A stretch of 62,951 nucleotides of DNA, the filler included, from Globobulimina sp. (Eukaryota), in assembly GCA_003354225.1 (NCBI GenBank). It is 22 parts of 22 records of this genome, joined end to end, with 100 filler letters (N's around TTAATTAATTAA, not from the genome) between each part and the next. Parts side by side here need not be neighbours in the genome. Positions count along the whole stretch, not along the records: positions 8,603 to 11,369 come from PIVH01004976.1; 21 more parts are not named here. One strand, 5' to 3'. Positions 6,121 through 59,350 of this stretch are shown here, piece after piece (positions within the stretch are counted from its first letter, which is position 1; every line of letters starts with the position of its first letter). The notes beneath the pieces are model-generated. The model searched no databases, was not told the origin of the DNA, and was given only the letters and a program-made list of their open reading frames with translations. The position numbers and the translations under genes are program-made.

Positions 6121-7242
6121 TCACGCGTAAGATAACTGTGGATATTCAAAATTCGCAATTGTATCAATCAAAAAGCGTCTAAAATTGTGACAAATTGCAC
6201 CTGTTGAAACCATAATGTTTCGTGTAAATATGATTTTATTTCCGCTTCCCGCATCCCAATGTTGTGATAACTGCTTCATATCAATTGTATAAATTACATT
6301 ATTCTCGTTTTTGGCAAATCCAATTTCCATTTCTTGCATAGTTAACCAAGCAGACCAAATATCCTTTGTCAACACATAAGAAACAGCCAAAGGGTCGTGA
6401 AGAAATGCAACATTATCATCAAATATTGGATCAATAAATATTTCCTTTTGAACGAGAGACCAAATTTCAATTTGTTTAACAATTAATTCTAAAAACGGAA
6501 GTTGATACTTTGATAAATGTTTCATAGCTAATAAATCATAATAAGTCATCCAACATTGAAGCGTAATATTACCGGTTACCATCGCTATATTATTGACCCT
6601 ATCCTTTGACGGCAACACTTGGATTGCGGCATCAGGGTCTATTCGCAAATTGAAATCTTTTTGCAAAGTTACTGCGTCAATTTCATATGACTCATAAATA
6701 TCATTCACCAATGAGCCACCCATTAAAATGAGGTTTTTAATTTTATATTCCTCGTTCAATTTGAATAAATTTGCTAAATTAGTCAAGGGACCAATAGCCA
6801 GCACATAATCAGCAGAGTTATATAAAGCAACCGATGGATGTTCAAACAGTAAATATTTGTCCCAAAATGCATATTCTTGCGGATAAATCACTTCCTTTCC
6901 AACATGGTTCCAGAGCGGCGGTTGAATGTTATCGGTGAATGTTTTATTGGCTCCCACAAAAACTGGAATGTTTCCGAAGCCCATCAATGTTATGTATTTT
7001 TTAACCATGCGGGCTCTTATCACATTATCAATGTTGTCGCCAACTGTGTGAATGCCAATTATCTCTATTTCTTTCCATTGTGATAACAATAGTAATAATG
7101 CCAATGTATCATCAACGTCAACACCAAAATCAGTGTCCAACCAGACACGTTTTCTCTTTGTTGCATTTTTATTTGTTGGACTGGGACACGAAGAGCTAAA
7201 ACATGTAATAAGCATACAAAATAAACAAAGGCAAGCGGACAT
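6121..7242 (-). CDS. Inosine/uridine-preferring nucleoside hydrolase family protein with signal peptide
   Basis: DTDFGVDVDD, AIGPLTNLA, LMGG, DFN..IDPDAA, LHDPLAV; hydrophobic N-terminus. Confidence 0.92.
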   Translation of the reverse strand: MSACLCLFCMLITCFSSSCPSPTNKNATKRKRVWLDTDFGVDVDDTLALLLLLSQWKEIEIIGIHTVGDNIDNVIRARMVKKYITLMGFGNIPVFVGANKTFTDNIQPPLWNHVGKEVIYPQEYAFWDKYLLFEHPSVALYNSADYVLAIGPLTNLANLFKLNEEYKIKNLILMGGSLVNDIYESYEIDAVTLQKDFNLRIDPDAAIQVLPSKDRVNNIAMVTGNITLQCWMTYYDLLAMKHLSKYQLPFLELIVKQIEIWSLVQKEIFIDPIFDDNVAFLHDPLAVSYVLTKDIWSAWLTMQEMEIGFAKNENNVIYTIDMKQLSQHWDAGSGNKIIFTRNIMVSTGAICHNFRRFLIDTIANFEYPQLSYA

Positions 7243-7285
7243 GATTGAATTATTAAATTACAAAACAAGGTTTTTTAGTGTTAAA

Positions 7286-8502
7286 ATGGCAGGTACTGCT
7301 TTTACTGAATGGTTGGTTCAATGGAACATAAAACACTTACATCACAAATTTGAAACAATTGGTTTAAATAATCTATCATCACTAAAAGAAGCAGCTCCGT
7401 CGGATGTTCTTGCAATAATAAACAAATTGGACCTAACAGAAATATCTGATAAATTAAATCTAAAAGCTGGGATTAAAGCGTTGCAAAAAATAACTATTAT
7501 AATACATGAAAATGAACATAAAGCTTTGATTGCAATCGAAGACACTATAAAACACATAACAAATTTAATAAATCATGTACAAAATGAACAAATTAATATT
7601 GATGATAGAATGCATAATAATATTAACACCAAAATCGAAAATGGATTTAAATTCTTGTACAATGAATTAGAAAAAAGAAAAAATTATTTATTGGCAGAAA
7701 CACAGACAATTGTGAAATATCGAAAAAATGTATTAAATCAACAACTAATTATTTTAGAAAGCCTTTTGAAAGAATCTATAAATATAAAAGAAGAATGTAA
7801 TAAAATATTATTGAAACCAATCTCTTTTAAGGACTTAACTCAGAGAAAAAACCAAATATTTAATTTAAGAGATAATATGCGCGATAATATCAACACAAAT
7901 ATACCCATAATTTCGTGTGGTATTAAATTTGCATTTTGTGGTTGTAATGACATGATATCATTAATAAATAATTTAGGGATAATTTCCAAATATTCGTTAA
8001 ATATATTAGCTTTAAACAATGATTTTTTTAGTTTATCAAATATTGAAATACTTTGGAACTTACAATGTATAAATCCTGCGGAAGATATTGATAATTTATT
8101 TAAAGATGACAGGAACTCCATTATTATTGAATGGAATGATGTTAATTCAAATAATTTAAATTGGGATTCCCTCTCATTCAAAATAAATAATTTCAAAAAT
8201 GACATTGAAAATATGTATACCAATTCGTTAAATAATTATGTTATCACTACAGCTCTTAACAAATTAAATGAAGAAAGTACATATCAAATTCGATTGAAAT
8301 TGCTTTATTATGAGGAAAATGCATTAAATCTAATTTCAAGTGATTGTCAGCAGGTTATTGTGAAATATCTATCCACAAAAACTCGGTTACAACGCAGTGT
8401 ATTCGGCTATGTTCGAATGAATATTAATGTTTGGGTCAATATTGAGAGTATCGGTGATATTGTTTTATTATATTTCGGTGAGGAATTTATGTCTTTAATG
8501 TC
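7286..8502 (+). CDS. SAM-like + coiled-coil + FN3-like protein (3' partial)
   Basis: Likely ATG at 7286 (MAGTAFTEWL). Helical N-terminal domain, long coiled coil, FN3-like L.E.STYQIRL, C-terminal VFGYVR motif. Confidence 0.55.
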
Positions 8503-8648
8503 NNNNNNNNNNNNNNNNNNNNNNNNNNNNNNNNNNNNNNNNNNNNTTAATTAATTAANNNNNNNNNNNNNNNNNNNNNNNNNNNNNNNNNNNNNNNNNN
8601 NNCTGATTAGGGCTTTCTAACATCGTTTTTGATTGTAACATTTTGAGG

Positions 8649-11306
8649 ATGGCACAACCTGCATACGATGAAATAATATATGCGCTAGTATCACGTGGAC
8701 AGGATGTGTTAGCAGAACATACAGAGAGATCAGGAAATTTTGAACAAGTAACACGCCAATTATTAAAACGCATTCCAGCTGAAAATAAAATAATGTCATA
8801 TGTATATCCAAAAGAAAAATATGTATTCCATTATATGATGGACGATGGGATAACATATTTATGTTTGGCGGATGAAGGATTTGGTCGTGTGATCCCATTC
8901 AGATTTTTGGAAGATTTGAAAAATAAATTTGTTGGTATGTTGATACACAAAATTAAAATCCAGCAAAAGTATGCAATTAACATCATTATAAGATACATTC
9001 GGGGATAGTGCCAAAACAGCCATTGCATATTCGTTGAATGCAGATTTCCAGGCAGTCATTCGTCGTTTGATGGAAACTGTAAATGAGATGAAAATATCTG
9101 ACAACTTTAAACCAGTCAAGATAAGCTTACATAAACATGAGATATCCGCAAATATCAAAGACAGATATGCCTATATCGTATATTTTTTTGCTTTTGAAAA
9201 TGTGAACCAAAATGGAAGCATGGAACTTTCCTTTGAATTAACCATCGATCCGCAAGCTTTTATTTCTTCATTCGAAGCAAACATAGATTCTGAAATATAT
9301 ACCGCCATAACAAAGGAAAAAGGAATAGCCGCAAAAGAATACAGTGCTGCTAAAGGAAAGCATGAAAATGCAATCTTGATATCCCAGCCACATAAAAATG
9401 TAGAAAATGTATTTGAAATAAAAACGAATATTGATGCAAAAAGCAAAATATTGTTAACAATCCAAATTGAACAATACTTACAAAAACAATTTGAATTTAA
9501 TGAATTAAACGTTCAGATCTTAAGAAATTTCGAAAAATATAATATTAGCCAGAAATTTGAGCATATTGTGTTTAAATTGGACATTGAAGATAAGAGTGGT
9601 ATCTATGATGTGAATATTCCAAACCTGGATGCTGGCGCTATGATGGTTGCTCAACATATGGATGACACAAATCAGAGATGTCAAATAAATGGGAAAATTT
9701 TGCACAAATCATCGTTGAACGAATTGATATTAAAATATAAAATAAAGGGTGAACAAAATGATTGCCACATTTTATTTGACACTGCGTCCAATACATTTTG
9801 CCATATTATCTCGGATATACTCACAAATTCAACTATGCACGAAATGGATATTGATGAAGGACATAGCGATTCGAATAACATATTGATGCCTCGGAGAGTC
9901 GTATTTGTAGTGGATAAATCGGGCAGTATGTCTGGCTCAAAATGGACCAAAACAATCTCTGCACTCATTTTAGCAGTAAAACAACTCAGAAAAACATATG
10001 ACAGGTTTGCTGTCATTTTATTTGATGATAAGACTCAATTATTGCCATATAAACATAACACTAAATGCATATTGGTGGATGAAAAGAATATATCTCAATC
10101 GATACAAGCTTTACAAAATCAACATGTCGGAGGCAGTACAGATATTAATGCTGCATTGCTAAAAGCAATCGAATTAATTAAAATGGACATATTGTCATTA
10201 AACAGTGCTGATAAGTACCATGGATATAATTTCTTTATCAATCAAATCATATTTATTACGGATGGAGAGCCGAATCATGGCATAACAAATACGAAACAAA
10301 TCATCGACAATGTGAAAAATGTTAACGATCTAAGAAAATATCCATATTTTCATTCGGAATTGGAAAAGATGGCAACGATTCTTCCTGGATTCATGACTTA
10401 AACCATACCTTTTTGAAGGTGTTAGCTCTTAACAATAATGGCTTTTATCAGCGAATTAAAACAATGTCTGCCAATACTGCGTTAAATCAATATTTTAGTA
10501 TTTTGTCAAAACCAGTTTTGTCAAACATTGAGGTGAAATACAAAAACAAAAATATTAAAGAAATGACTGAAACTAAATTTAATACGTTTTATCATGGAAG
10601 CGATATTATACTTTGTGGCAAAATCCAAGCTGGAAATGCGTTTAATTTATCATTTACGATATCAGCTGTAACCGGTAAAAAAATTAAAGAAAATGATAAA
10701 TTAATGGTAAAACCAATTAATATTTCAAAAGAAATGGACATTACTATTAATGGGGTGAGCTGCGAAGAAAATAATAACATTGAACGAATATGGTGCTATT
10801 TGAAACTGAAACAATTTGCACAGCAAAAGTTAATTTATAACGATATGATTGAAATAGATGATGAAGAAGAAAAACAAGAAAGCATATTGCCGTTGTCATT
10901 GGCATTGAAATACAGATTTGTTACGCCATGGACTTCTTTTATTGTCGTTAAAAAGAAAAGCAATGAAACACCTATTTATCGGACAGCAAAAAAATCATTG
11001 ATGAGATCATATGGCAGTACAAACAGCAAAATATATGACATAAATGAGGAAATTCAACGTACAAAAAACACAGTGTTGCAATCAATTGAGAGAGTGTTGG
11101 ACCGTGGCGAAAAAATGGAATTATTGGTACATAAATCAGACACATTGGATGGTGAAGCAAGGAAATTTAACCGACATTCAAAAAAATTAAAAAATAGAAT
11201 GAGACGGAAAAACCTAAAGATTATATTAATACTATCATTCATATGTTTGTTCGTAATATATGTGATTACTGCTATAATTTGTGGTTTTAATTATAATAAA
11301 TGCTAA
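8649..11306 (+). CDS. VAMP7-type R-SNARE with inserted VIT-vWA (ITIH-like) module; intron 8935-8992; frame break near 10326-10340
   Basis: Longin (IIYALVSRGQDVLAE...RVIPFRFLEDLK...TAIAYSLNADF), VIT, vWA (VDKSGSMSG, GSTDI, ITDGEP), ITIH-like FVTPWTSFIVV, then synaptobrevin (IERVLDRGEKMELLVHKS) and a C-terminal TM helix. Confidence 0.85.
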
Positions 11307-11469
11307 TTATAAGCTTATTGTAATTATTATATTACTGTACATACAGTACTTCTTCCGTGCTGATCTAGCNNNNNNNNNNNNNNNNNNNNNNNNNNNNNNN
11401 NNNNNNNNNNNNNTTAATTAATTAANNNNNNNNNNNNNNNNNNNNNNNNNNNNNNNNNNNNNNNNNNNN

Positions 11470-12461
11470 GCGATAGGTTTTGGTGCTTTTACCATTTTAT
11501 TTAATATTTTCGCATGATAATAAGGAGAATATTTATCATAATCACTTGATAATATACATGCATCGACATCTATTTCATGATCAAATAATATATGTTCTCT
11601 TTCATCTCTATAATCACTAATATATGAAACATCCACTGCTTTATTTGTGTCCGCTTTTATAACTAAAATCATTCCATTCTTTCCTGCCAAAGCTCGTCCA
11701 AAATGAAAACAAGATGTTGTTGACAATGGTCCTGTATTCGTAAAAATAATAATTGTATTCAATAAATATATAAAAATACCTTGACATTGAGTTAAAAACT
11801 TAGCTTCATTTATTCCATGAAACAAAGTTAAAGTTTTTGGTTTCTTCATACAACCTGGAATATCATTAAATTTCTCAAACGTTTCTTGAAATGATCGTTT
11901 CCAATAATAAAACGATTCTAATCTTTGCTTTGATTGATTCCATGGCCAACGAAATAATTTTCTAAATTCTAGTTGTATTGAATAACAATTACAATATAAC
12001 TTTAATACAACTAACTGTTTTATGCCAATACCGTTATCTCTTAATAGTTGGCTATATCTCCTTGTTCTCTTCGATGAAGACTCTCCCCTCAATATCTTAC
12101 GGCAGCTCCTTAATATTCCATTCCATGTTTTCTCTGTAATTGGAGCATATTTATTATTTAACATTTCTCGTTTTAAATTGGCATATTTTGGCTTAATGTC
12201 ATCCGCCCACTTTGTCCCAAAGCTCCATTCTCGCGTTGTGTGCTGATCGAGTTCAATGTCACTTTGCTTTAAAGTTTGTTCATCAATTTGTTTTTCTGTT
12301 TCTTTATTCGTTAACCATTGGCAATGGTAACCAAAGAATAAGCCAAATAACTCAATAATACCATTAGGAATGTCAATATTGATAATATTCCATTTTTTAA
12401 ATATAAACTTATAGAGTTGCGAAACAACCCCAATATTCCAATCATGGATGGATTGATCCAC
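11470..12461 (-). CDS. ADP-ribosyltransferase-fold protein, paralog 2 (start uncertain; likely in-frame intron 11732-11779; 3' partial)
   Basis: KPKYANLKREMLNN, LKLYC, LFHGIN, GPLSTTS, GMILVI, VSYISDYRDEREHILF. Confidence 0.68.
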
Positions 12462-12647
12462 TACCTTCCAATCATTGTACTTACTTTAGTTTAGTTATTT
12501 AATTGATACTTGATTCGAGTTCAGTTGTTTGTTTATATAGTAACTTGTAATTTGAATTTTTCATTGGCTTTTCTATTTTATTAGAAACACATTAACAGAA
12601 GTTTTTTTTTTGATTATTTGAAAAGTTTTCTTGCTGGCCCGTTAATT

Positions 12648-13946
12648 ATGTTTTCTTTATTAACTCTTCATTTAATTTTGTTCGCTATTGAAGGCCAGAA
12701 GAGTTGGTATAATTGTGATGAGCATGAGAATGCATGTCAATCAGTGGACTGCACTGCAGAAGACGCAGCAACTAGAAGCAAAATAATGTGTAATGAATTT
12801 CCGTTAAGTATTATAACTATTAATATTATTATGCATCATATTATTTCAAACATCGCACTATGCTCAAACAGATTTTATGTAGGAAGTCTCAATTTGTTTG
12901 ACTATCAATCTCAGTGGTCTTTGATCGCTCAAACTGCATCAGAATGCAACAATGCATATAACTCTACAACTCCGTATTGTAATTCATGGACACAAGTTGA
13001 TTCTGACCAAACAACAGAGTGCGAATGTACAAGATTTGAATCTCCAGATAATGCTTACAATTCTTATTGCGCAGCATGGCAATGCCATAATGTTGAAGAT
13101 AAAATTGTGTCTTCCAAATGTCAATGCATAAACATCAATGATGTAAACAATTCGAATTCACATATTTCGCATTGCGTATCGTGGATATGTAATAATACGG
13201 ATAACTCTGCAGTTGCTAATAATTCCTCTCTCGTTGAATATCAATGTGTCTCCGATGAACCCGAACCGCATAATGCATACCATGCGGAATATATACATTA
13301 TCAAAACAACACAAACCATTCATTGTGTTGGAGTTGGATCGGTAACACATTAAATGCAGCACCTTCAAGCTGGTCAGTTATAAATTGTGAATGTCAGCGA
13401 CCTAAACTTGCGGTGTATGTTACAGATCAAAGTAAAACTGGAGGAGTGAGCAATTTATATTGCGATGCATGGATATGTTACAACAAATCAATGAGTTATT
13501 ATCATATTTCGCAATTACAATTTTATTTATCATGGACAATCGCATCTATTGCTGGAGTTTCACTGTGTATGTTAAGATATTTTGCATTCAAATATGGATT
13601 CGAAAAGGTTAAAGTCAGCAAACCCAAACATGTTACAGCATTAAAGTGGTTTTGCAATATCTTAGTCGTTATCTCATTGTTTACTTTATTATTCTGGTCA
13701 TTTATCTATGGCGGCACGTTAAGTGTATTGCTAACTGTGTTCGCTTGGAATGTATTCGTGTTATTTATGATAATCGGTGTTGCTGTTAAACGTTATCTTA
13801 AAAAGAGAGAAAATGAAAAATTACAAGAAGCACAATATGAATTTAAAAATTTTAAATCGATGTTTTTCCCACGATTGCCAACTCAAAACAGTTGGTTTCG
13901 TTATTCTCACACAGAAAGTTTGAGCAATGAGGAACTTGACATTTAA
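12648..13946 (+). CDS. Cys-rich ectodomain membrane protein (signal peptide, CxC...CxxWxC repeats, about 3 TM)
   Basis: Repeated CEC/CQC...CAAWQC/CVSWIC/CDAWIC units and three C-terminal hydrophobic helices. Probable in-frame intron near 12803-12871. Confidence 0.65.
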   Translation: MFSLLTLHLILFAIEGQKSWYNCDEHENACQSVDCTAEDAATRSKIMCNEFPLSIITINIIMHHIISNIALCSNRFYVGSLNLFDYQSQWSLIAQTASECNNAYNSTTPYCNSWTQVDSDQTTECECTRFESPDNAYNSYCAAWQCHNVEDKIVSSKCQCININDVNNSNSHISHCVSWICNNTDNSAVANNSSLVEYQCVSDEPEPHNAYHAEYIHYQNNTNHSLCWSWIGNTLNAAPSSWSVINCECQRPKLAVYVTDQSKTGGVSNLYCDAWICYNKSMSYYHISQLQFYLSWTIASIAGVSLCMLRYFAFKYGFEKVKVSKPKHVTALKWFCNILVVISLFTLLFWSFIYGGTLSVLLTVFAWNVFVLFMIIGVAVKRYLKKRENEKLQEAQYEFKNFKSMFFPRLPTQNSWFRYSHTESLSNEELDI

Positions 13947-14336: not shown

Positions 14337-17103
14337 TCTCTCTCCCGTTCCCTATCTCTATTTCTATCGCGATCTCTCTCTCGCTCTCGAACCCGGTCCC
14401 TGTCCCTCTCCCTATCCCTCTCTCTATCTCTGTTCCTATCTCTTTCTCTCTTTCTCTCCCTATCCCTGTTCCTATTTAATAAGCGACTATTATTATTTTT
14501 ATTATTTACGTTCGAATTCATAACATTCACAGTTGCGTTCCTATCAACCCTCTCTCGATCAGCATACCGCCGACTATTATTACTAATGTTCTTCTTGATA
14601 TTATTTTTCTTAATTTTATGATTACTGTTCCCATTTTTATCTCGCTTAATCATCCTACGGCCGCCACCATTCTCCGAATCGCTATAACTGAACGACGAAC
14701 CACTCGAACTATGGCTGTTGGAACTGGACGACACATCGCCCGACGATGAGCTCTCTCTCTTTAACTTCTTACGAATACGGTGCGACTGCGAGCAATATCT
14801 CCTCTTTTTATCTTTCCCTTTCTTCTCCTTCTCCACATCGCCATTATTACTTATCGGCAACGACTCATATAAATTCAATTTATCATTATCCCTCTCCTTC
14901 TCTTTGCAAATATCAATTTTCCTCTCCACTGTGACATCCTTCTTACTCTCATGAGTCTCGTCAGCAGCCACAATATGATCACGCTTCAACTCTTCATTCT
15001 GGTCGTCACCGCACTCACTTTCCAACAACACGCCATCATAAATCTGCAAAGTTCGCCTGAAATCGACATCTGACGCAGTGAATTCTGTGCTGCTCTCCGC
15101 ATCCATATCCACTTCGACATCGCTGCTATAATCCTTCCAATATTTTGGCTCGGTCCATGAGGTTTCATTGGTTAATTTATTCCAAAAATAGTATTCTCTC
15201 TCTTTACGATTCGCTGTGCGTAGCCGCAGCCAACTGATTTGAAACGGACCTTTGGATGAATCGTTTTTCAACGATGGAGAGACAGAAACTTCCTTCACCG
15301 CAGCTCCAGCACTCAGTTTCACGCTGACACTGATGCTGTTACTGCGGCGCGGATCGCTCGAACCATAACCTGTGGAAGACACGGATGCCGAAGAAATGTC
15401 GCCGGTGGATGACATATCTTCGTCGCTGGAATCAATAATAAGATTGTTCTGCAACAATGCAACAGAATCACTTTGTTCGCGCGCAATGTCACTCACTCCG
15501 ACAACACTGGTGGTCAATGATTGTGGCTGTGCACTCATATCAATATCAATGTTATTTGGCTTCGTAGCAGTTATTTGCATGTGTTGTATATGATGTTGTT
15601 GGAGCTGATGTGTGTTTGTTAGGTGATGCGTAGTTATATTTGTTGATTTTGTACTGTTAGTTAACGAATGTTCTCGTTTGTCTCTATAATTATATCGTTC
15701 CCGCGTATTATTGTTATATCGATCCCGTTCTCGATCTCGTTTATATCGATCGCGGTCCCTACTGTTACATGAAAAAAATATCAGTCTGAAGATTCATTTT
15801 TTGTTATGACATAAAGAATATTTTACCTGTCACGAGCACTTCGGTCCAAATTTCTATTTCTATCCCGTTCCCGCTCCCGTTCTCTGTCTCGATCGCGATG
15901 TCCGCGGTCTCGTTCCCTGTATCTATTATTTCGCTCTTTATCTCGTTTTCTATGTTTGTTAATAATACTTTTATACGAAGCAATTGCATCATTTAATCTT
16001 AATTTATTATTCCCACAAACTTCAACATAAAACTCTTCACATTTACTACTATCAAATCCACGCTTCAATGCCACACTATTCGCATCCTGCAACGTCATGG
16101 AAACGTTATATTTCTGTTCTTGCTCTGTTTTCGCCGGTCCGTACCGTCCATAAATCACATCATACCAATCCATTTTCGGAAAATCGCACGTTTTTATACA
16201 AATCTTCTCGTTATATTGCGGCTTGTCGTCGTCATCGTCATTTGGTGATGGGATATCATTAAAACTCGGATCAAACACACTTTTCTTATGTGCTCTCTGT
16301 ACAGGTTTGGTTTTTATCGTCGATGGACCTTTATTAGTATTACTAATTTTATTTGTTACCAAAGAGCTCGACGCAGCATTCGAAGCTAATCGTGTGCCAC
16401 CAATCAATTTATCAGTAAACAATGATTTACATAGTTTTGCTTGTTTAACAATATTCAAATCCAAACGCGAATTGTTGATAATACTGGTAATAATATCCAA
16501 CAATTTCGAGCGTGGTTTCCAATCAATTTTGAGCATTTTTGTCTTCTTAATCACAGCAAAAATGTCAGTGATAACTTTCTCTGCATCTTTCTTCGTCTTA
16601 CTCTCAATTTTAGGATTGGTTAGTTTCACCATAGCTTTTTGCAACCAACATGTCAATTTTTCGTCTCCTTTGTGCTGTTTGATCCACGTTGTTATCACAG
16701 CTTTACTCAAATCATTGGTGCGCTGCAATAAACATTTGCAAATTTGCGCGGATCTTTTTTTCATACTCACATCGCGAGCATTAGCAGTCTGTAAAAATTG
16801 CGCCAGGATCACATCCACCATTTTAATGTTATTCTGCTTGACTGCTTCTTTGTTATTTTTAGTGAATTTAAATTTGGGAATTTTAACTTTTGCACTTGTT
16901 TCTTTCGATGATATTGTTTCTTGTTTTTGAATATTATTCGTAGACACATTAACTTTCTCTTTTTTTAATATAGTATTTTGTTCATTAATTTTATTCATAT
17001 CCACAGTGTCAGATTCTTCACAAATGTCCTCTTCCATTTTAACAATGTTTTGCGCTGTTTTCAGCTTTCTATTCTTGACCGGTCTCCTTTTAGCTTTGCG
17101 TTT
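14337..17103 (-). CDS. Nuclear RD/RE-dipeptide-rich protein with WW domain (both ends partial; intron 15759-15826)
   Basis: The intron joins ORFs 15823-17037 and 14285-15580 in frame. WW: W......REYYFWNKLTNETSWTEP. Extensive RDRDRE tracts. Confidence 0.7.
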
Positions 17104-28672: not shown

Positions 28673-30406
28673 TTAATTCAAAATGAACTTGGCGTAAAAA
28701 TAGCTATCCAGCAATTCAATACCGAATATAAGAAAGCGATGATTCATTTTAATTCATTGTATTGTAAACAGGGACAAATTGCATTTAAGTCTTATGAGCA
28801 AGAATATGATCACACAACTTTGAAAAAGGTACAGTGGACGTTCAAAATGGTCTATATATTATCATTAATGTTATATTGCAATTTCACACATTTACAAAAC
28901 ACACTCAGTAAAACCTACCGACAAAATAATGGCAAAGATCACAATAGTTTTTATTTCTGGGGGAAATATTTAAAAATAGCTGTTCAGCATTTTGGTACCA
29001 AAATTTCTGACGCCACATGTAATTTCTTTCATGGCGTTGATAAGAAAATGTTTTTACCAAATTATACAAATACTGGTATTAGGGGAGGAATTGAGATCTA
29101 TTGCCCTGTATCAACATCGTCATCATTTGCAGTTGCTGCACATTTCGCAAATACTGCAGGTCTAATCATTCAATTAGGAGATCACGACATGAGTCCAACT
29201 CGTTGTTTCTCTGTGTCGTGGCTGTCAGATTTTGCACAGGAAAAAGAATATGTATTTGTTCAGAATACAGGAACAATAGCAATTAATAATATCATTGATG
29301 TGGAGACAGGCTATGAATATGATGGGGTATTACAAGCAACAATGTTCATTCATGCTGTAGTGAGTGGCAAATATTATGAAATTACTGAGGCAATGCGTGC
29401 ATTTATTAAAGCTTTAATGGAGGACCAATTATCGCCAAAAATATCAGCATGTAAACCATTCAAATCACTAACAAAACTTGGCAAACAAATTATAAATACA
29501 GTTTTTGAACAACAGGATGTGGTACAAATTCATTATTGGAAATTAAGAAAATATGGTTCGTTTTTGTCAGAGTTTTTAATTCATTCCGATTATGAATGGG
29601 TAAATCTGGAATTATTATATATGCTGTTTCCAAATGTCGAACATATTTGGGTTTCAAATATTAATCTTAGTCCATTGGTATTTGATAACATTTTGTTGCA
29701 TTTTAAAACAAAAATAGTGAAAATATCAATTGTGTCACCAAACCCAAAGAGTGCAATATCAATTAAAGAAGCTATACATAGATATTCAGCAACGTTTAGA
29801 GAAATAGGTATTTTTATTTATTTTGATATGATTGAAAAAGAATTTCTGATGGAACGATGCGATCAGATGCAATTTGTAAGAAAGATAGTGGAAGGAATGA
29901 ATGGTTTGTATTTTGAAGATGTAAACAATGAAATTTCACTGTTGAGTGAGAAATTGATTGCAAATCAATTGAATGACTCAAATAACAATAATGATGCGGA
30001 TCAAATATCGTTTAATATGTGGTGTAATCGGTTGAAATTTATGGAAATTGTTTGGACACTTTTTGCAATGAATAAAGACTCCTATTTATTTAAATTAATC
30101 TGTCATCCAAAAATTAACAAATGGGTAAAAATTGACAAAATAACTCAACTATTTCCAAATATAGGTAATGTGGCAGTTAGTGGAATTTATTTATGTTCGT
30201 TTGTGATTGAAGATATTTTCAATCATTTAAGGAGTAGAAAATCAGGATTGCATTATTTTTGTATTAATGAGCCTATTGAAAAGGAACTATGTATTGATGA
30301 TGTTGTTCTTCATTATGCGGAAAAATTTGAAGAAATAAATTGGAGAATTTTTGTTGAGGACTTTTCAGGTGAAAAATGTTTCTATTTTCAACGGTGTGAA
30401 TATTAA
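28673..30406 (+). CDS. ADP-ribosyltransferase-fold protein, paralog 3 (5' partial)
   Basis: ILSLMLYC, LSKTYR, FFHGV, PVSTSSSFAVAAHFA, GLIIQL, VSWLSDFAQEKEYVF. Duplicated C-terminal WV......LFPN module. Confidence 0.72.
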   Translation, partial: LIQNELGVKIAIQQFNTEYKKAMIHFNSLYCKQGQIAFKSYEQEYDHTTLKKVQWTFKMVYILSLMLYCNFTHLQNTLSKTYRQNNGKDHNSFYFWGKYLKIAVQHFGTKISDATCNFFHGVDKKMFLPNYTNTGIRGGIEIYCPVSTSSSFAVAAHFANTAGLIIQLGDHDMSPTRCFSVSWLSDFAQEKEYVFVQNTGTIAINNIIDVETGYEYDGVLQATMFIHAVVSGKYYEITEAMRAFIKALMEDQLSPKISACKPFKSLTKLGKQIINTVFEQQDVVQIHYWKLRKYGSFLSEFLIHSDYEWVNLELLYMLFPNVEHIWVSNINLSPLVFDNILLHFKTKIVKISIVSPNPKSAISIKEAIHRYSATFREIGIFIYFDMIEKEFLMERCDQMQFVRKIVEGMNGLYFEDVNNEISLLSEKLIANQLNDSNNNNDADQISFNMWCNRLKFMEIVWTLFAMNKDSYLFKLICHPKINKWVKIDKITQLFPNIGNVAVSGIYLCSFVIEDIFNHLRSRKSGLHYFCINEPIEKELCIDDVVLHYAEKFEEINWRIFVEDFSGEKCFYFQRCEY

Positions 30407-43500: not shown

Positions 43501-45469
43501 TCATTGTAGCGTATCAAAATCTAAAAGTTCCAATCCGTCCAATACCGCCATATCATCATCATCATCATAAACATTCATTGGTCCACCAACTGTAACAATT
43601 GCATTATTCGTTGCCAATACTACCTCATTATCTGATTCATGCGATGCATCACTCACATTTTTGACATTATCAATTTCATTTCCCATTGACAATTTTTTAA
43701 ATATTTCATCCTGTTCCATTTCATTCACAATTTCCTCCAAAACAATGGATTGCACCAATGCATGATCACCAATTATTTGCCCAAACTCATCTGTTCCTTT
43801 GTTTTCATCACAATCATGATTTGATTCCTTACCCTCATTCTCCTGCCTTCTGACTGGAGTCATCGGGGTGCCAACACCGCTCATCTCGACGGCAAAAAAC
43901 CCGGTCACATTTTCTATCGGCGATACAGAAGTCGACATAACTTGAACATGGTCAACATTTTTAATCCCGGCTTTATAATCATCCGCTGTCATTATTTTGA
44001 CAGTATTGGATATCGATATTTTATTCTTTTCTCTCTTATAAATTATCACTACACAGATCATACATATTATTAACAATACTGTTCCTACACTGAATATCAT
44101 ATATATACTGCTATCAGCAGTATTATTTGCATTTGTGCGCTCTGCGTTGCCACTGACATTATGTTGAGTAGTTTGCATGTTTTGTATGGGTGAGGATGTC
44201 GGAGTGGTTGTGGGATGAGAATAACGTATCCGTAGTATAGGAGACGGTGTCGGGTTTATGCTCGGATCCGCTGCTGGATACTTTGTGGTTGGTTCAAGTG
44301 TTGGATCATCTGTAGGCTCATGTGTTGGATATGTGGGTGAATAGGTGGCTGGACTAGTTGTTGGATCATAGCTAGGATCTGCTGTTGGATTATGTGTAGG
44401 GTCATAGGTTGGATCGTTTGTGGGATAATTTGTGCGTGCTGTTGTTGGATTATTTGTTGGTGATGGTGTTGGGTTATTTGTGGGCTGTGATGTTACGAGC
44501 GTTGGTATATGCGTTGGTGTGGGATTTTGTGTAAGCGCTGCTGTTGGCATATTTGTTGGTGTTGCAGTTGTAGGTGTTCCTGTTGTCGTTGGTGTTCCAG
44601 TCGTTGGTGTTCCAGTCGTTGGTGTTCCTGTTGTTGGCGTCCCAGTCGTTGGTGTTCCTGTTGTTGGTGTTCCAGTCGTTGGTGTTCCAGTCGTTGGTGT
44701 TCCTGTTGTTGGTGTTGCTGTTGTGGGTGATGTGGGGTTATTTGAAGGGTCATATGTTGGGTTATTTATAGGATCTGTTGTTGGTGACGGTGTAGGATAT
44801 TTTGTTGGGTTATTTGTGGGTGATGGTGTTAATGGCGCAGTTGGATTATATGTTGGCGATGGTGTGAGGTTGTTAGTGGGTGATGGAGTGGGATAGTTGG
44901 TTGGTGTTGGAGTTGGTACAGATGTTGGTGGTTTCGTTGGGTTTGCCGTAGGGTATTTAATACCAAATATTTGAAGATTATCAAAGTAGCAGAGATCAGC
45001 TACAGCGTTTCCCGAATTACCTAATCGGAGTTGTAATGCAGGCTGGCCGTTATAAGTGTTGTTATCAGGTATTGTTATTTGATAATCGAGTGCTACGTTA
45101 TCATTTTTGCCAAGTATGTTAACATTGATCCATGATGTCACCGGTGTTTTGTATTGTAGATAACAATATTCTCCGCTATTTAAGTTTCTTTCTTCGGTAT
45201 CTGTTAGATATGTTTTCAGAGTGCAAGGCTCAGTGTCTGAGGTATATAGAAAACATACCAATTACAATACGCATTGTGTGATATAAGATTACTGGGATCG
45301 AGTTGGTGGCAGATGAACCGCCTTGGCTTTCCCAACAGGGGACATTTTGGCAGCGTGCGTTGGTTGAATTAGTGGTAATGGCTAGATTTTCTTGTGTCCA
45401 TTCTGATAGGCCGTTGAAATCAAAAAAATAAAATCTTTGTTCGGTTTGTGCATTGATTGTAGATTGCAA
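43501..45469 (-). CDS. Type I membrane glycoprotein with PT-rich mucin-like stalk (candidate intron 45237-45258; 5' end unclear)
   Basis: Globular N-terminal domain, PTxxPT repeats, TM helix, acidic cytoplasmic tail. Confidence 0.8.
44560..44722. repeat. 15-bp coding tandem repeat (TGTPT, about 10 copies)
   Basis: GGTGTTCC(AGTC/TGTT)GTT units. Confidence 0.9.
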
Positions 45470-46043
45470 ATTGCAATGCGTTCAATAGCATACACAATTG
45501 TAGCCAGCAAGACGGCGGTGTAGTGCGCATGATCGTGTGGTGGGCAGTTTTGCCAGTTTTATCACATTATGATAAAAACATGGAGCGGAGGACAATTTAT
45601 ATACAGGATAATTATACACATTGCAGTGTTATTTTTATTGATACTTTTTTGTTGTTTGAGATCCTTCATTCTTATGATAATCACCAACGTTAAAAATTTG
45701 ATTGCTTTTTATTCTGATTCCTCGCAATATTTTTATTCTTTGTGCTTTTTTATTGATTCCAAGGTNNNNNNNNNNNNNNNNNNNNNNNNNNNNNNNNNNN
45801 NNNNNNNNNTTAATTAATTAANNNNNNNNNNNNNNNNNNNNNNNNNNNNNNNNNNNNNNNNNNNNCGCCTCTACCGCCTCTACTACCAAATCCTCCGCGT
45901 CCACGTGTCATTCCACCTCCTCTGAAACCTCCACGACCCATTTTGTTTGTTTATTTGGTAATTTGGTTTTGGATTAAAAATTATAATTATCTTGAATTAA
46001 TAGTGAGGTTTTTTAAATAAGCTCAAGTCAACTGATCTCGAAC

Positions 46044-48266
46044 ATGGAACGTCGTTGTCATTTTGCTGAATGTCAACAAGAGCGTTACAGTGATGACTAC
46101 ATTCCATACACATGCACAGAATGTGACAAGATTTTCTGTGAAAGTCATGTTGCAATTGGGAAGCATGATTGTGTAAATCTGAAACAAAACTACAAAAACA
46201 AAAATAAGAAGTCAGAATTATCAGATTTGGAAGTTGATGGTTTAAATGAAGACATAAAATCGTTTGAATTATCGGATAATGTGATATTAAAATGTAGATT
46301 TAATGAATGTAATGAAACCTCAGACTCTGCCATTTTTGTGCAATGCTCAACCTGTAAGCGATCGTATTGTGCCTCACATCGTAATACCAATGACCATAAT
46401 TGCAAAAATATTAAATTTACTTTAAAAGAAAGAGCCATTATTCGTGGATATTGGCAATGTGAAATATGCACTTTTATGAATGCGCCATCAACCAAAAAAT
46501 GCCTGGTTTGTCAATTGAATTCATACACTGATAAAAGCGATGGTATTTGTCCATATTGCACCAAATCAATCAGTTATATATTATATGAAACCCATTTAAA
46601 AATCTGCGAAAACAAACAAACAAACGAGTCCGCATTAGACGAAATTATATGTCCATATTGCAAAAACGCTGTATATCAATTTATATTCGATCATCACATT
46701 CAAAAATGTATCAATAAAACCAGCACAAACACGCATAAAACAAATAAAAAAGACGCACGAGTCACTCTGTATTGTGATGAATGTAAAACATATATTTCTT
46801 ACAAAGTATATGATTTCCATAAAACATGGTGTAGAGGCAAAGAAAAAGCAGCAGTGTTATCTAGTAATTATAATTTGAGTGAGAAAGATCTCGGTGAATT
46901 TTGTCCAAAATGTGGAATATTAATTTCAAAGAAAGTTTATGAGAAACATTTAGCAAAATGTTACAGTGAAAAAGATAAAAAGTATGCAATAAATGGAATA
47001 AATGCAACATATACAAAGGAAAAACAGAAAGAAGAAACCTGCCCATTTTGTGTCAGAGTATATTTTAATCTTCAACGTCATTTAAAATATTGTAGTGATC
47101 TACGTGATATCCAACGGAGTTTTGACGATAATGATAATGAGTCAACAGATGAAGATATGGACATAATTCCAGCTACACCTAATAAACAGGCTAAAATGCG
47201 AGGGATTCACTCGAAAAATATGCCCTCACCAAATACGCCTTCACCAAATCTGGATTCTGCTAAAATCAAATCCGAAATCAAAGGACAATATGTGCGGAAA
47301 CGCAGAAATCATAAACCGAAACATTTATGGATACAAACAACTTTACATAATCCACTGAAAAGACATCGATATCCGAATGGCGATGATGATGATAAAGAGC
47401 CAGAACCTAAAAAAAGCAGAATGATGCATAAGAGAATAAAGATACCGAATCACAAAGAAACATTGTTATATATAAAAGATTTAAAGGATGAGGAGAATAT
47501 AAAATGTTATTGGATGATGCCTCCACTCCATAATTATACACAAATTGTGTTTAAAATTACGGAAAAGGATTATAAAACGTTACTGGACCATTATGTCGAT
47601 GACAGCGTATTCATTCGGAAAATGATTGATTTTCAATTAAAATATATTTACAGTGGTTGGTTATTTACGTTTCAACCGAGAATTTATATATTTTCGTGTC
47701 AATTTTATGAGGATGAATTGAAGGACATTGCTGATGTGGATGCTATGGATGTTGATATTACGTATTTTGATTTTTTATTTGAGAAACAATTTTTAATAAT
47801 ACCAAAATTGAGTGAATTTACGTCGTGTTGGGAGTTAATTATTGTTTGTTATCATAACAATATTAAAAATAAAAAAAGTAATGAAAAACCGTGCATTGTG
47901 ACATGGGATGTACTACAAAAAGATAACAAAGGTAAAACAAAGACAAATAGAGTTATTCGCAAATGGTTAGATTTACAATACAAAAATAAATACAATACTC
48001 AAGAAACGTTATTTACAGCAACGAAAATAAGAGCACATAATATGGCTAAAATCCCAAAGTTACTCAGTGGCAGATTGCATAGGGAATCATGGTGTTATCA
48101 ACTGTTAAATTTTAAAAAATGGGGAATTATGGGCGGATATAAAAATACTGCCTCAAAAGCAAAATTGGATGAAATAAGCTTTGGATTCACACAGGTGAAG
48201 GAATATAAAGATGATATTGTTTCGATAATTGATCATTTACATAAAATTCAAAAAAAATATTTCTAA
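46044..48266 (+). CDS. Multi-zinc-finger protein (2x AN1, RanBP2-type, several C2HC) with degenerate Ulp1/SENP-like C-terminal domain
   Basis: C....C...C..C...FC..H....H.C twice; WQCEICTFMN......CLVC; CPYC...H...C repeats; IYIFSCQFY, LFEKQFLIIP, WELIIVC, PCIVTWD. Confidence 0.7.
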   Translation: MERRCHFAECQQERYSDDYIPYTCTECDKIFCESHVAIGKHDCVNLKQNYKNKNKKSELSDLEVDGLNEDIKSFELSDNVILKCRFNECNETSDSAIFVQCSTCKRSYCASHRNTNDHNCKNIKFTLKERAIIRGYWQCEICTFMNAPSTKKCLVCQLNSYTDKSDGICPYCTKSISYILYETHLKICENKQTNESALDEIICPYCKNAVYQFIFDHHIQKCINKTSTNTHKTNKKDARVTLYCDECKTYISYKVYDFHKTWCRGKEKAAVLSSNYNLSEKDLGEFCPKCGILISKKVYEKHLAKCYSEKDKKYAINGINATYTKEKQKEETCPFCVRVYFNLQRHLKYCSDLRDIQRSFDDNDNESTDEDMDIIPATPNKQAKMRGIHSKNMPSPNTPSPNLDSAKIKSEIKGQYVRKRRNHKPKHLWIQTTLHNPLKRHRYPNGDDDDKEPEPKKSRMMHKRIKIPNHKETLLYIKDLKDEENIKCYWMMPPLHNYTQIVFKITEKDYKTLLDHYVDDSVFIRKMIDFQLKYIYSGWLFTFQPRIYIFSCQFYEDELKDIADVDAMDVDITYFDFLFEKQFLIIPKLSEFTSCWELIIVCYHNNIKNKKSNEKPCIVTWDVLQKDNKGKTKTNRVIRKWLDLQYKNKYNTQETLFTATKIRAHNMAKIPKLLSGRLHRESWCYQLLNFKKWGIMGGYKNTASKAKLDEISFGFTQVKEYKDDIVSIIDHLHKIQKKYF

Positions 48267-57324: not shown

Positions 57325-59350
57325 ATCAATAAAATGGAGGCCATCATCCAAAGCAAATGCAAAATGGGAAGATTTGGGTGTTGCTATTTTTAATTTGTGT
57401 TTAATATGCAATATGTGATGCAATTTGCGGTATCGTTTAATTATTTCATTTCGATGTGCAATGCAAACATAATCATCACTCAATGCATCGTTACACAGAG
57501 TATATGCCAACGCATATTGTCTTAAATGATGATGTAATAATAATGCCAATCTACAAAACCATTTCCCGCGTTTGTATGAATAGGGCTGCGATGATAATAA
57601 CTGTTGATATATGGAGCAGCAGTTTGAATGTTGCTTTTTATTCAATTTTTCCATCACATCACTGACTCCGCGATGCAGTGTGGCGGAATAAATAAAAATG
57701 TCACGATATACACAGACAAATGAATTAATACAATCCATATTATCCATATTCAGTGCAGTCAATTCCTTTACTTTTTTGGCACAGTCCTCAATTTTTGCAA
57801 TTAATTCAGACTCATTTGTTTGTTTTGCATTTTTTATGTACAATGCGTAGATTTCATCATATTCTGATCTGAATTGTAAGGCGTTGCAATAATTAATAAA
57901 TATGTGTTTGGTGGGAAATATTAATGTGTCTCTTTGGTTGCCATCAAATACTTTATATTTCGGATATTTCCTCATTCCAAACACACTCATTACGGAGTCT
58001 TGAATGCTTTGATGCGGACTCAGATAAAATAATAATTGGCATTTCTTCAAAAACTCCATTGTTTCAGCAGACATCGCAACATATTCACCAATAATTTTGT
58101 GGCATTTCTTTAAAAAGCCAGTATTTTCTGATAATTTCTCACCAAAAATTGTTTGTTGTGTCTCAATTTGATGCATTATGCTTTGGATTAATTGTTTGCA
58201 GTTTTTCCCATTTTTTTGAACTTTTAATCCGGTTTTATTGCTGATTTGAATTAAAATCTTTTTATCCACACAACTCAATAAATCTTGACTGATATCACAT
58301 TGTTGGGATTGCCTTAATATTCCATGTTGAACCAATATAAAAAGTGCATTTTCAACATTGTTAATTTCATGATATGACAAAGAATTTGTTTTGAACCATT
58401 TCACTTTTCTTAACATTAAGCGACTTAATAACTTGACAGCATTTTTATTTTTATCTGCCAATTCAACCATTTTTGTCAAGAAATCCAATTCTTTCTCTTC
58501 AAATAAATGTGCATATTTTTTCAAACAAGACACCAAAATATTTGATAATATATTAAAATATAAATCTTTTCTATCTTTGTTTTCATTTATTATTACACGC
58601 AAATCATTTATTTTATTCCTTATTTGTTTGCAATTGGAATTATTGGGTGATATACAAATATGTATTCGAATAATTGCATCTCTCTCATCATGCAAATATT
58701 TATATGCACAGATTTGAACATTTTCATATTTCATTAAAGCACAAAAATATTCACTCATTGTTTGTGGCAAATATCCCAATCCAATGACTGATTTCTGCCA
58801 TTTATCACATTTAACCACAACAATGGCATTTTGATCGACGGCATTATCAAATTCATGAAGCAAATCCAAATAAAAATGTGGCTTTGAATGGTAATCATTT
58901 CGATGCAGTTTATAAGTTTTATATGTTTTATTTGAACAGAATTTGTGTCCAACAATACGTTGATCGAAATATGTGCATTCCATATCATTTGTGTCTGGCA
59001 ATAACAACAAAGAAGTACAGAATTTATTTTTACATTCAAATTGTTCATATTCTTCTTTTTCTTTCTCGTCGTCATCCACATCCATTGATTCTTTCATAAT
59101 GCAAAATTTTATTCGTTTATTATCCATATCCATATCCTTCTCATTTTCCTCTCTTTTCCGCTTCCTCGAGTTTCTTGTTTCATTTTTGCATTAATTTATC
59201 AAAATATTGCGTCAGATCAGATTGTGTTTGAGTTAATGTCTTGTTTTGTTGTAGGAATAGCCTGCAATTCGAATCAATGTGAACATTAATATTTTGAATA
59301 TTTACTCTTTTGTTGCATAGAGAACAAACACAAACACAAACAGCTGGCAT
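57325..59350 (-). CDS. FAN1: FAN1 nuclease (UBZ, PIP-like box, HIRAN-like, helical/TPR; VRR-NUC beyond contig end), +1 frame break at 59180-59190
   Basis: CSLC......NVHIDSNC; KLLSRLMLRKVKWF...LSYHEI; YPKY.....IF......Y; RGKWFCRLALLLHHHL. Confidence 0.85.

Follow-up and report, generated by a model that had tools for sequence, protein, structure and literature searches.

Within the eukaryotic fusion machinery, longin SNAREs rank with the most conserved components. They are regulated through longin fold-back: in VAMP7, the longin domain folds back on the SNARE motif and thereby regulates it. Here we describe a gene from Globobulimina sp. (GenBank assembly GCA_003354225.1, contig PIVH01004976.1) in which these two parts are set apart by a large insert. 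The gene lies at 8649-11306 of a 62,951-nucleotide (nt) stretch of DNA, called the window below, and its two exons encode, in this order, a longin domain, a VIT domain, a vWA domain with an intact MIDAS (an adhesion site that depends on a metal ion), an ITIH-type tail, an R-SNARE motif and a transmembrane (TM) anchor. We explain it best as a functional, transcribed foraminiferal VAMP7 paralogue with a complete cytosolic ITIH/VWA5A-type cassette inserted in frame in its longin-SNARE linker, a reading to which we assign a probability of roughly 0.7. The fusion gene is real, expressed and constrained, while its function is something that we infer from the likenesses set out below.

Proteins of the Tomosyn/Sro7 type, and other R-SNARE-motif proteins with large extra domains, likewise combine an R-SNARE motif with a large non-SNARE domain, a likeness of layout rather than of compared homology, but there the large domain is N-terminal, longin and TM anchor are lacking, and the proteins are soluble regulators. 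With ITIH1 and ITIH4 (PDB 6FPY and 9C4F), homology is shared from the VIT domain to the FVTPLTS strand. However, ITIHs are secreted and have a C-terminal region past this strand, whereas the unit in the window protein ends four residues after it, inside the SNARE; signal peptide, extracellular location and a region beyond the strand, the marks of a secreted ITIH, were not found, and a cytosolic placement is predicted instead. According to the structural report, ITIH1 forms one beta-sandwich from residues 45-265 plus 601-652, it self-associates via its MIDAS in a cation-dependent manner, and its DISGSM stretch, to which the MIDAS of the window protein aligns, holds Asp298, the residue mutated in the MIDAS-dead structure 6FPZ (PMC7170535). 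A second paper describes a C-terminal strand, VITpt2, that joins the VIT sandwich, as well as an intracellular VWA5A/Vwa1 clade, and proposes a role in protein-protein interaction for intracellular VIT-vWA proteins (PMC10539598). Human VWA5A (BCSC-1), Dictyostelium Vwa1 (PMC10539598) and PARP4 share with the window protein the same VIT-Hyb-vWA-helices-VITpt2 unit, a conserved MIDAS and the absence of a signal peptide. These proteins are soluble, though, their unit stands at or near the N-terminus, and none of them is described in that source within a SNARE or as membrane-anchored.

The domain order of the window protein had been proposed in a first-pass annotation made from the DNA alone, and each of its elements was found again at the stated place (Table 1). 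The longin domain ends after the intron, with AIAYSLNADFQAVIRRLM at 9019-9072, and runs in frame into the VIT domain, which matches PF08487 with 58.6 bits over profile positions 2-110 of 111. From LHKH (nt 9127) onwards, the protein is homologous to the free-standing cassette P0001. The vWA domain matches PF00092 with 46.3 bits, and its MIDAS residues, for which intactness had been claimed (DKSGS, T, D), are found in DKSGS (9913-9927), as the T of GGSTDIN (10129-10149) and as the D of TDGEPN (10258-10275); the counterparts in ITIH4 are DKSGS, GGTNIN and TDGDPT, and the stretch DKSGSMSG is identical in the two proteins. Alignments to the ITIHs gave E-values of 1e-20 to 4e-24 for the N-terminal part of the cassette and of 3e-15 to 4e-17 for the C-terminal part, the latter being aligned to ITIH4 chain positions 419-601 and ITIH1 chain positions 424-599. 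At the end of this part, FVTPWTSFIVVKKK (10917-10958) aligns with the ITIH FVTPLTSM strand, reaching up to ITIH1 chain position 599, i.e. about residue 611 (the crystallized construct comprising a 22-residue tag plus residues 35-672). As read from the sequence, the cassette thus appears to be composed of a VIT sandwich, a vWA domain with MIDAS, a helical region and a closing FVTPWTS strand. From there the frame continues into the R-SNARE motif, whose Synaptobrevin match spans profile positions 2-89 of 89 and which found VAMP2, VAMP8, VAMP4, Nyv1 and VAMP7 among PDB entries, and into the TM anchor, again as the first-pass annotation had it. VLDRGEK (11094-11114) is identical to that of plain VAMP7 relatives and contains the Arg that we take, by analogy with VAMP2, to be the zero layer, and the tail GFNYNKC corresponds to the plain VAMP7 ending GFNYHKC. 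The two open frames of 446 and 324 codons would be expected by chance with probabilities of 8e-18 and 4e-13, given that at this contig's base composition a stop falls about every 12 codons.

The position of the insert follows from comparison with plain foraminiferal VAMP7s. Plain VAMP7s 227-232 residues long match the longin exon best (77-90% identity; 84-90% for the five best), those with a named source coming from Globobulimina turgida, Ammonia sp., Nonionella stella and Bolivina argentea, and longin and SNARE parts together are 80% identical to P0012 over 220 columns. The linker is near-invariant in all 11 plain proteins read (RRLME.ANDPRNKTYRSTDSKIY or RRLME.ANDPRNKTYRSTDSKIYEINEE, with an ANDPRNKTYRS stretch). 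In place of this short linker of about 25 residues, the window protein, 873 residues long, has its extra residues between RRLMET and MRSYGSTNSKIY: it reads RRLMETVNEM, then the insert, then ...KKSLMRSYGSTNSKIYDINEE, the junction peptide on the SNARE side being ...VVKKKSNETPIY. Since the alignment with the 11 plain VAMP7s puts the extra residues there, the insert lies inside the longin-SNARE linker, exactly where it had been placed at first sight. The plain proteins P0012 (Globobulimina turgida), P0180 (Ammonia sp.) and P0182 (Nonionella stella) share with the window protein the longin domain, the R-SNARE Arg, the anchor, the GFNY.KC tail, the clade and the intron position, the last of these being deduced from the genomic gene calls P0181 and P0184, which run off after KNKF(V/I)G. 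What sets the window protein apart from them are about 645 extra linker residues and a longer end branch. In a VAMP7 tree of 19 rows (P0023 and P0029 excluded), its VAMP7 parts fall inside a foraminiferal VAMP7 clade of 13 rows with a support of 100/99, a clade within which the tree does not fix their place, and their end branch measures 0.24 as compared with a median of 0.099, which suggests a faster-evolving VAMP7 paralogue.

The contigs of four public runs (X1, X2, X6 and X7; four studies, three organism labels) were compared with the gene contig. This bore first on the single frame break of the gene: the break is indeed present in the assembly sequence, as the first-pass annotation had seen, but it is not a feature of the gene. 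All four runs have 22 extra bases behind 10331, and because 22 nt (1 mod 3) provide the exact shift needed, we attribute the break to a fault of this assembly. The restored stretch (L-SQIDKYN-KKISIF by hand translation) matches the same place in P0006 (LSNIDKYSKKISIF) and in P0001, and the restored open reading frame (ORF) has 873 codons. The only further indel seen consists of six extra in-frame bases behind 9997, in X2 alone.

Besides, the runs allowed us to assess selection. X6 and X7 diverge from the window by a few percent, and counts were made on 40 of the 59 differences from the window, those listed across the four runs, two of them being found only in X1 or X2. Among these 40, 27 are synonymous and 13 non-synonymous, so that the per-site ratio of non-synonymous to synonymous differences (pN/pS, computed with 19.5% synonymous sites) is about 0.12 (binomial p 5e-11). 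For the insert alone, the listed differences divide into 19 synonymous and 9 non-synonymous ones, giving a pN/pS of 0.11. The insert is under purifying selection, and a low pN/pS between diverged strains or species means that the fusion is conserved rather than decaying. Selection rather than random chimerism had been argued for from the placement of the insert; the substitution counts, together with junctions bridged in several runs, bear this out.

Whether the insert belongs to the same product as the longin domain can be judged at the junctions. Junction 1 is bridged in three of the four runs (X1, X2 and X6, X7 having no cover there), and junction 2 in all four (X1, 10282-11280; X2, 10479-11324; X6, 10810-11060; X7, 10717-11100), so that the proposed fusion SNARE stands as a genuine one. 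Contig 12 of X2 (1481 nt, spanning 8892-10402) and contig 16 of X6 (807 nt, spanning 8625-9471) both cross junction 1 with the 58-nt intron exactly removed and hence resemble transcripts that were spliced but retained the insert; in X1, the intron is retained (contig 3), and junction 1 is bridged by contig 4 (9016-10311). These spliced contigs connect exon 1 to the cassette, which counts against an internal start at ATG 9088, by which the locus would give a longin-less VIT-vWA-SNARE-TM protein and the longin exon would be read separately or upstream. Such a start is also disfavoured by the constraint on the longin exon (6 synonymous versus 1 non-synonymous among the 7 differences listed for it). 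On the other hand, an internal start would fit the usual cassette-first layout of the family, given that an in-frame Met stands 13 codons upstream of the homology start, that free-standing family members start 6-10 residues ahead of HxIS..I.DRYA, and that in one relative (P0064, see below) a cassette stands directly ahead of a SNARE-like anchor. We consider this alternative unlikely, and it would be compatible with the fusion gene as we read it.

A somewhat different objection is that the cassette is removed from some or most transcripts as a long intron; plain VAMP7 would in that case be the main product, and the fusion would amount to intron retention or to an isoform of minor abundance. An in-frame GT..AG pair does exist, GTAAAT(9079)...AAAAAG(10955), and its use would leave a plausible linker, RRLMET|KSNETPIY...; furthermore, rare variants drop out of contigs, so that the lack of a long-intron joint is weak evidence. 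Yet contigs of the runs span the junctions, and no joint that removes the insert as a GT..AG intron was reported, the sole canonical joint reported among the runs being that of the 58-nt intron. The spliced X2 and X6 contigs read through 9079, and all four runs read through 10955. Moreover, the long intron would measure about 1.9 kb as against the confirmed 58 nt, and the frame of the insert is open, continuous with both flanks and constrained at a pN/pS of 0.11, which would be needless for an intron or a nested gene. Removal of the cassette by splicing as the main route is hence improbable in our view.

The conserved frame also speaks to the idea of a decaying pseudogene, i.e. of a young insertion that destroyed one VAMP7 copy. 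The frameshift in the window, the lack of an orthologue in other foraminiferal genera, the long VAMP7 branch and the low depth would all suit this idea, but the frameshift is absent in 4/4 runs, the sole other indel is of 6 nt and in frame, pN/pS is 0.12 with 27/40 of the listed differences at third codon positions, and MIDAS, zero-layer Arg and anchor are all intact, which leaves a pseudogene very unlikely. Finally, an assembly or amplification chimera of a VAMP7 and a VIT-vWA gene, which the short contig (2767 nt) of a very fragmented assembly, the 22-nt fault of the window version and an odd internal X1 joint (9043->10282) might bring to mind, can practically be dismissed in view of junctions that are bridged independently in four studies under three organism labels, including copies diverged by a few percent, and of two joins that are both in frame and inside a 25-residue linker.

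Several observations, in addition to the in-frame GT..AG pair, weigh against the fusion gene as we read it. As it stands in the window, the gene carries a frameshift, read depth is low at about 5-9, and the whole ORF is spanned by no single contig: the X2 pieces listed leave 10442-10478 bare, and X6 (about 9472-9825, 10461-10809 and beyond 11060) and X7 have bare stretches as well, these latter reflecting missing cover only. That the X2 and X6 contigs are transcripts is suggested by the absence of the intron alone, no run being recorded as RNA, and an intron-less DNA copy may be their source. Over the longin exon (8696-8974), two bins of X2 show depths of 358 and 250, compared with about 7 elsewhere, a peak that is probably due to a highly expressed plain VAMP7 paralogue of at least 90% identity. 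The X1 joint 9043->10282 skips 9044-10281, which would take out the greater part of the cassette and shift the frame. With a depth of 5.1, 28 letters on its shorter side, AT..GC ends and 2 nt of microhomology, and coinciding exactly with the ends of neighbouring X1 contigs, this joint is not taken as evidence for a cassette-less allele; it may be a deletion variant present at low depth or may have arisen during amplification. An orthologue with the same architecture, for which the first-pass annotation had suggested looking in related organisms, was not found among the examined proteins of Nonionella, Bolivina, Ammonia and Globobulimina; the fusion would therefore be lineage-restricted and possibly young. 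Cytosolic orientation, docking and a retained fold-back, all taken up below, are predictions.

The architecture had been called unfamiliar, and Longin+VIT+vWA+Synaptobrevin indeed occurred in no examined match of the protein searches. Word-indexed searches over 5.8 billion proteins returned no protein combining VAMP7 with VIT/vWA (0/11, 0/20 and 0/11 matches), and no second longin-VIT-vWA-R-SNARE protein was among the best 150 of 2409 HMMER matches in 1.84 billion representatives, as judged by matched ranges, with seven sequences read. Likewise, no description of a longin SNARE with a VIT/vWA insert, or of foraminiferal cassette fusions, was found in the full-text literature, in a search that went without supplements or the foraminiferan genome paper.

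The insert as such has close relatives in a foraminiferal VIT-vWA cassette family, to which it is 56-60% identical (P0001, P0006 and P0031; 56% to P0001, from P0001 residue 8 onwards). The borders of the cassette are constant: it opens with a Met shortly ahead of HxIS..I.DRYA and closes at KY[KR]FVTPWTSMIVVK[KE]K, and the window insert conforms to these borders. Family members begin with a Met just before the VIT domain and have no signal-peptide-like extension, and the cassette precedes very different cytosolic domains (Ras-like GTPase, kinase, U-box/SAM, adaptin-ear, CAP-Gly and a Q-SNARE-like tail); among 32 chosen members, Pfam matches were to Ras (2), protein kinase (2), Hsp70 (2), adaptin ear (2), CAP-Gly (1), U-box with SAM (1) and PH (1). 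Transcriptome assemblies are the source of most of these relatives, so that one or another architecture could be a chimera, which is argued against by the constant borders and by repeats across genera (Ras in P0006 and P0008; Hsp70 in P0067 and P0062). In a cassette tree of 26 rows, the 21-row foraminiferal clade is separated from five ITIH-like outgroup rows with a Shimodaira-Hasegawa-like approximate likelihood ratio test (SH-aLRT) support of 100, and the window insert is nested in a 17-row core clade (SH-aLRT 99), nearest to kinase- and Ras-linked cassettes. Some further matches within the family were checked and discarded: P0059, taken up as a cassette-SNARE, has only a Lys-rich tail, the Synaptobrevin match of P0008 reached 18.8 bits (cut-off 26.4) and two Snf7 matches 24.1 and 24.9 bits (cut-off 27.3), so that nothing is claimed for them, and the guess of a gelsolin-like domain in P0179 was unsupported on checking.

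Two kinds of relatives are of particular relevance for the window protein. P0067 from Nonionella stella (1239 residues) is an Hsp70 whose nucleotide-binding domain is separated by the cassette from its linker/substrate-binding domain: its residues 20-404 align to HSPA1A 5-377 and its residues 1026-1238, beginning ILLLDVTPLSLGIE, to HSPA1A 388-610, with the linker ILLLDVTPLSL. P0062 from Bolivina argentea has the same downstream Hsp70 junction. These Hsp70 fusions thus have the same cassette and borders as the window protein and are likewise hit exactly at an interdomain linker, but they differ in host and in cassette lineage, the P0067 insert grouping with P0054 (support 99) apart from the lineage of the window insert. 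As the cassette lineages differ, the VAMP7 and Hsp70 insertions are independent, and the cassette has accordingly been inserted into a hinge at least twice. The other relative, the 298-residue fragment P0064, continues from a cassette tail into a Q-SNARE-like helix and then a TM anchor, and it alone, among the best 150 of 2409 HMMER matches, joins a cassette tail to a SNARE-like helix. It resembles the window protein in having a cassette and then a SNARE-type helix with anchor, but its helix is of Q-type and its match is below threshold (V-SNARE_C 26.7 bits against a cut-off of 27.1; Sec20 18.9 bits); it may represent a second, Q-type cassette-SNARE fusion.

How could a SNARE work with such an insert? 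Being of the VAMP7 type, the protein would be tail-anchored, so that the cassette would face the cytosol, as does everything N-terminal of a tail anchor. A cytosolic cassette, which is a prediction from topology, would fit the intracellular VWA5A/Vwa1 clade, because the partners of the family are all cytosolic and no member has a signal-peptide-like start. By analogy with ITIH1, the cassette may be self-closing: it ends on a strand that returns to its own N-terminal domain, and both of its ends would lie close together in one VIT sandwich. Such adjacent ends would explain why the hinge tolerates the insert and how the longin domain can still reach the SNARE motif; longin and SNARE would not be pulled apart, and fold-back regulation may survive the insertion. 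As to its role, a cytosolic metal-dependent adhesion domain, as first proposed, is conceivable; in our preferred reading the cassette most likely acts as a MIDAS-dependent protein-docking unit, which would link this vesicle SNARE to some partner or scaffold that is also used by other proteins of trafficking and the cytoskeleton with the cassette.

Taken one step further, and rather tentatively, the self-closing VIT-vWA cassette might be part of a foraminiferal plug-in system in which it was repeatedly copied to N-termini and hinges, forming a common MIDAS-based docking network. The hosts of this putative system would be VAMP7, Hsp70, a Q-SNARE-like protein, Rab/Ras-like GTPases, adaptin-ear and CAP-Gly proteins, kinases and a U-box ligase, and the cassettes would bring them together, either on a common scaffold or on one another. 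Independent insertions into VAMP7 and Hsp70 would imply that cassettes are shuffled by a dedicated mechanism or else that insertion into hinges is strongly selected. A repeat search of the gene contig found no target-site duplication or terminal repeats at the insert ends that would resemble transposon borders, only short AT-rich pairs expected by chance.

As for its surroundings, the window does not represent one locus but strings together 22 contigs, each 2763-2768 nt long, that are unrelated and ordered by length. The joins, N44-TTAATTAATTAA-N44 with a 12-nt linker carrying stops in six frames, are artificial, as is any feature that spans them, and the flanks of the gene are therefore uninformative on its genomic context. 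G+C content ranges from 27% to 43% per piece and is 31.6% in the gene-bearing contig. The only locus returned by a scan of metagenome contigs (L001, a contig of another public assembly) is identical over its bases 1-119 to window positions 11253-11369, starts in the last codons of the gene and extends more than 3 kb downstream. It was ruled out as a further orthologous fusion, being merely the 3' flank of the same locus, and its continuation identifies the 3' end of the window contig as an assembly break rather than the end of the locus. At the other end, the first 41 bases (8603-8643) belong in X1 and X2 also to another contig, which then diverges (2121 nt at a depth of 94 in its X2 version), and the X6 transcript contig differs upstream of 8625; the sharing of 8603-8643 may reflect a common 5' element, a repeat or a chimeric contig end. 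Of ten long ORFs scanned across the window (338-769 residues), seven are without a Pfam family at E 1e-4. One of them, the 338-residue ORF on the neighbouring contig, has 24% identity (E 1e-10) to residues 485-670 of P0011, an 889-residue Bolivina argentea model of a plain VAMP7 that is without the usual anchor and runs into a long extension. The STS...E.E pattern of this neighbouring ORF may be ADP-ribosyltransferase-like.

Table 1. Coordinates of the VAMP7 fusion gene and of other open reading frames in the window
Feature	Position	Strand	Evidence or remark
Gene-bearing contig	8603-11369	.	Whole gene on one 2767-nt contig between artificial linkers
Exon 1: start codon plus the larger part of the longin domain	8649-8934	+	Pfam Longin PF13774, 64.7 bits
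Intron, 58 nt, GT..AG	8935-8992	+	Exactly skipped in X2 contig 12 and X6 contig 16; retained in X1 contig 3
Exon 2 start: longin end through RRLMET, the last residues common with plain VAMP7	8993-9078	+	Alignment
Junction 1: 16 codons (VNEMKISDNFKPVKIS) with no clear homologue; internal ATG 9088-9090	9079-9126	+	
Cassette part 1: VIT about 9130-9465, vWA from about 9898	9127-10331	+	Pfam; 56% identity to P0001; ITIH4/ITIH1 alignment
Site of the 22 nt missing from the assembly, source of the apparent frameshift	10331/10332	+	22 bases inserted there in 4/4 runs
Cassette part 2: vWA end and post-vWA region, ending in the FVTPWTSFIVVKKK strand	10332-10958	+	ITIH4/ITIH1 alignment; 57-60% identity to foraminiferal family members
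Junction 2: linker SNETPIYRTAKKSLMRSYG, its end resembling KTYRS of the plain VAMP7 linker	10959-11015	+	
R-SNARE motif; presumed zero-layer Arg codon CGT 11103-11105	11016-11213	+	Synaptobrevin PF00957, 84.3 bits
C-terminal TM anchor (11214-11288), NYNKC tail, TAA stop (11304-11306)	11214-11306	+	25 hydrophobic residues
ORFs without a Pfam family	167-2473, 7052-8500, 12585-13943, 14337-15793 (-), 28673-30403, 43504-45261 (-), 11470-12485 (-)		Pfam scan
zf-AN1/RanBP zinc-finger ORF	46017-48263		Pfam match
FAN1 HTH/TPR ORF	57325-59190	-	Pfam match
UCH ubiquitin hydrolase ORF	60424-62949		Pfam match

In summary, a natural VAMP7 that is expressed and constrained while carrying a 645-residue module in its hinge offers a ready-made test of hinge tolerance, and the recurrence of hinge insertion in Hsp70 shows cleanly, in a case from nature, how a domain can be inserted by a unit whose termini are predicted to be adjacent. 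The sharing of the cassette across GTPases, adaptin-ear, CAP-Gly, kinase, U-box and Hsp70 proteins suggests an as yet undescribed wiring of trafficking, chaperone and cytoskeletal proteins in Foraminifera, organisms whose cell biology is famed for transport and which are genetically almost unexplored. If true, a docking network of this kind might have to do with the extreme traffic of vesicles and organelles in reticulopodia.

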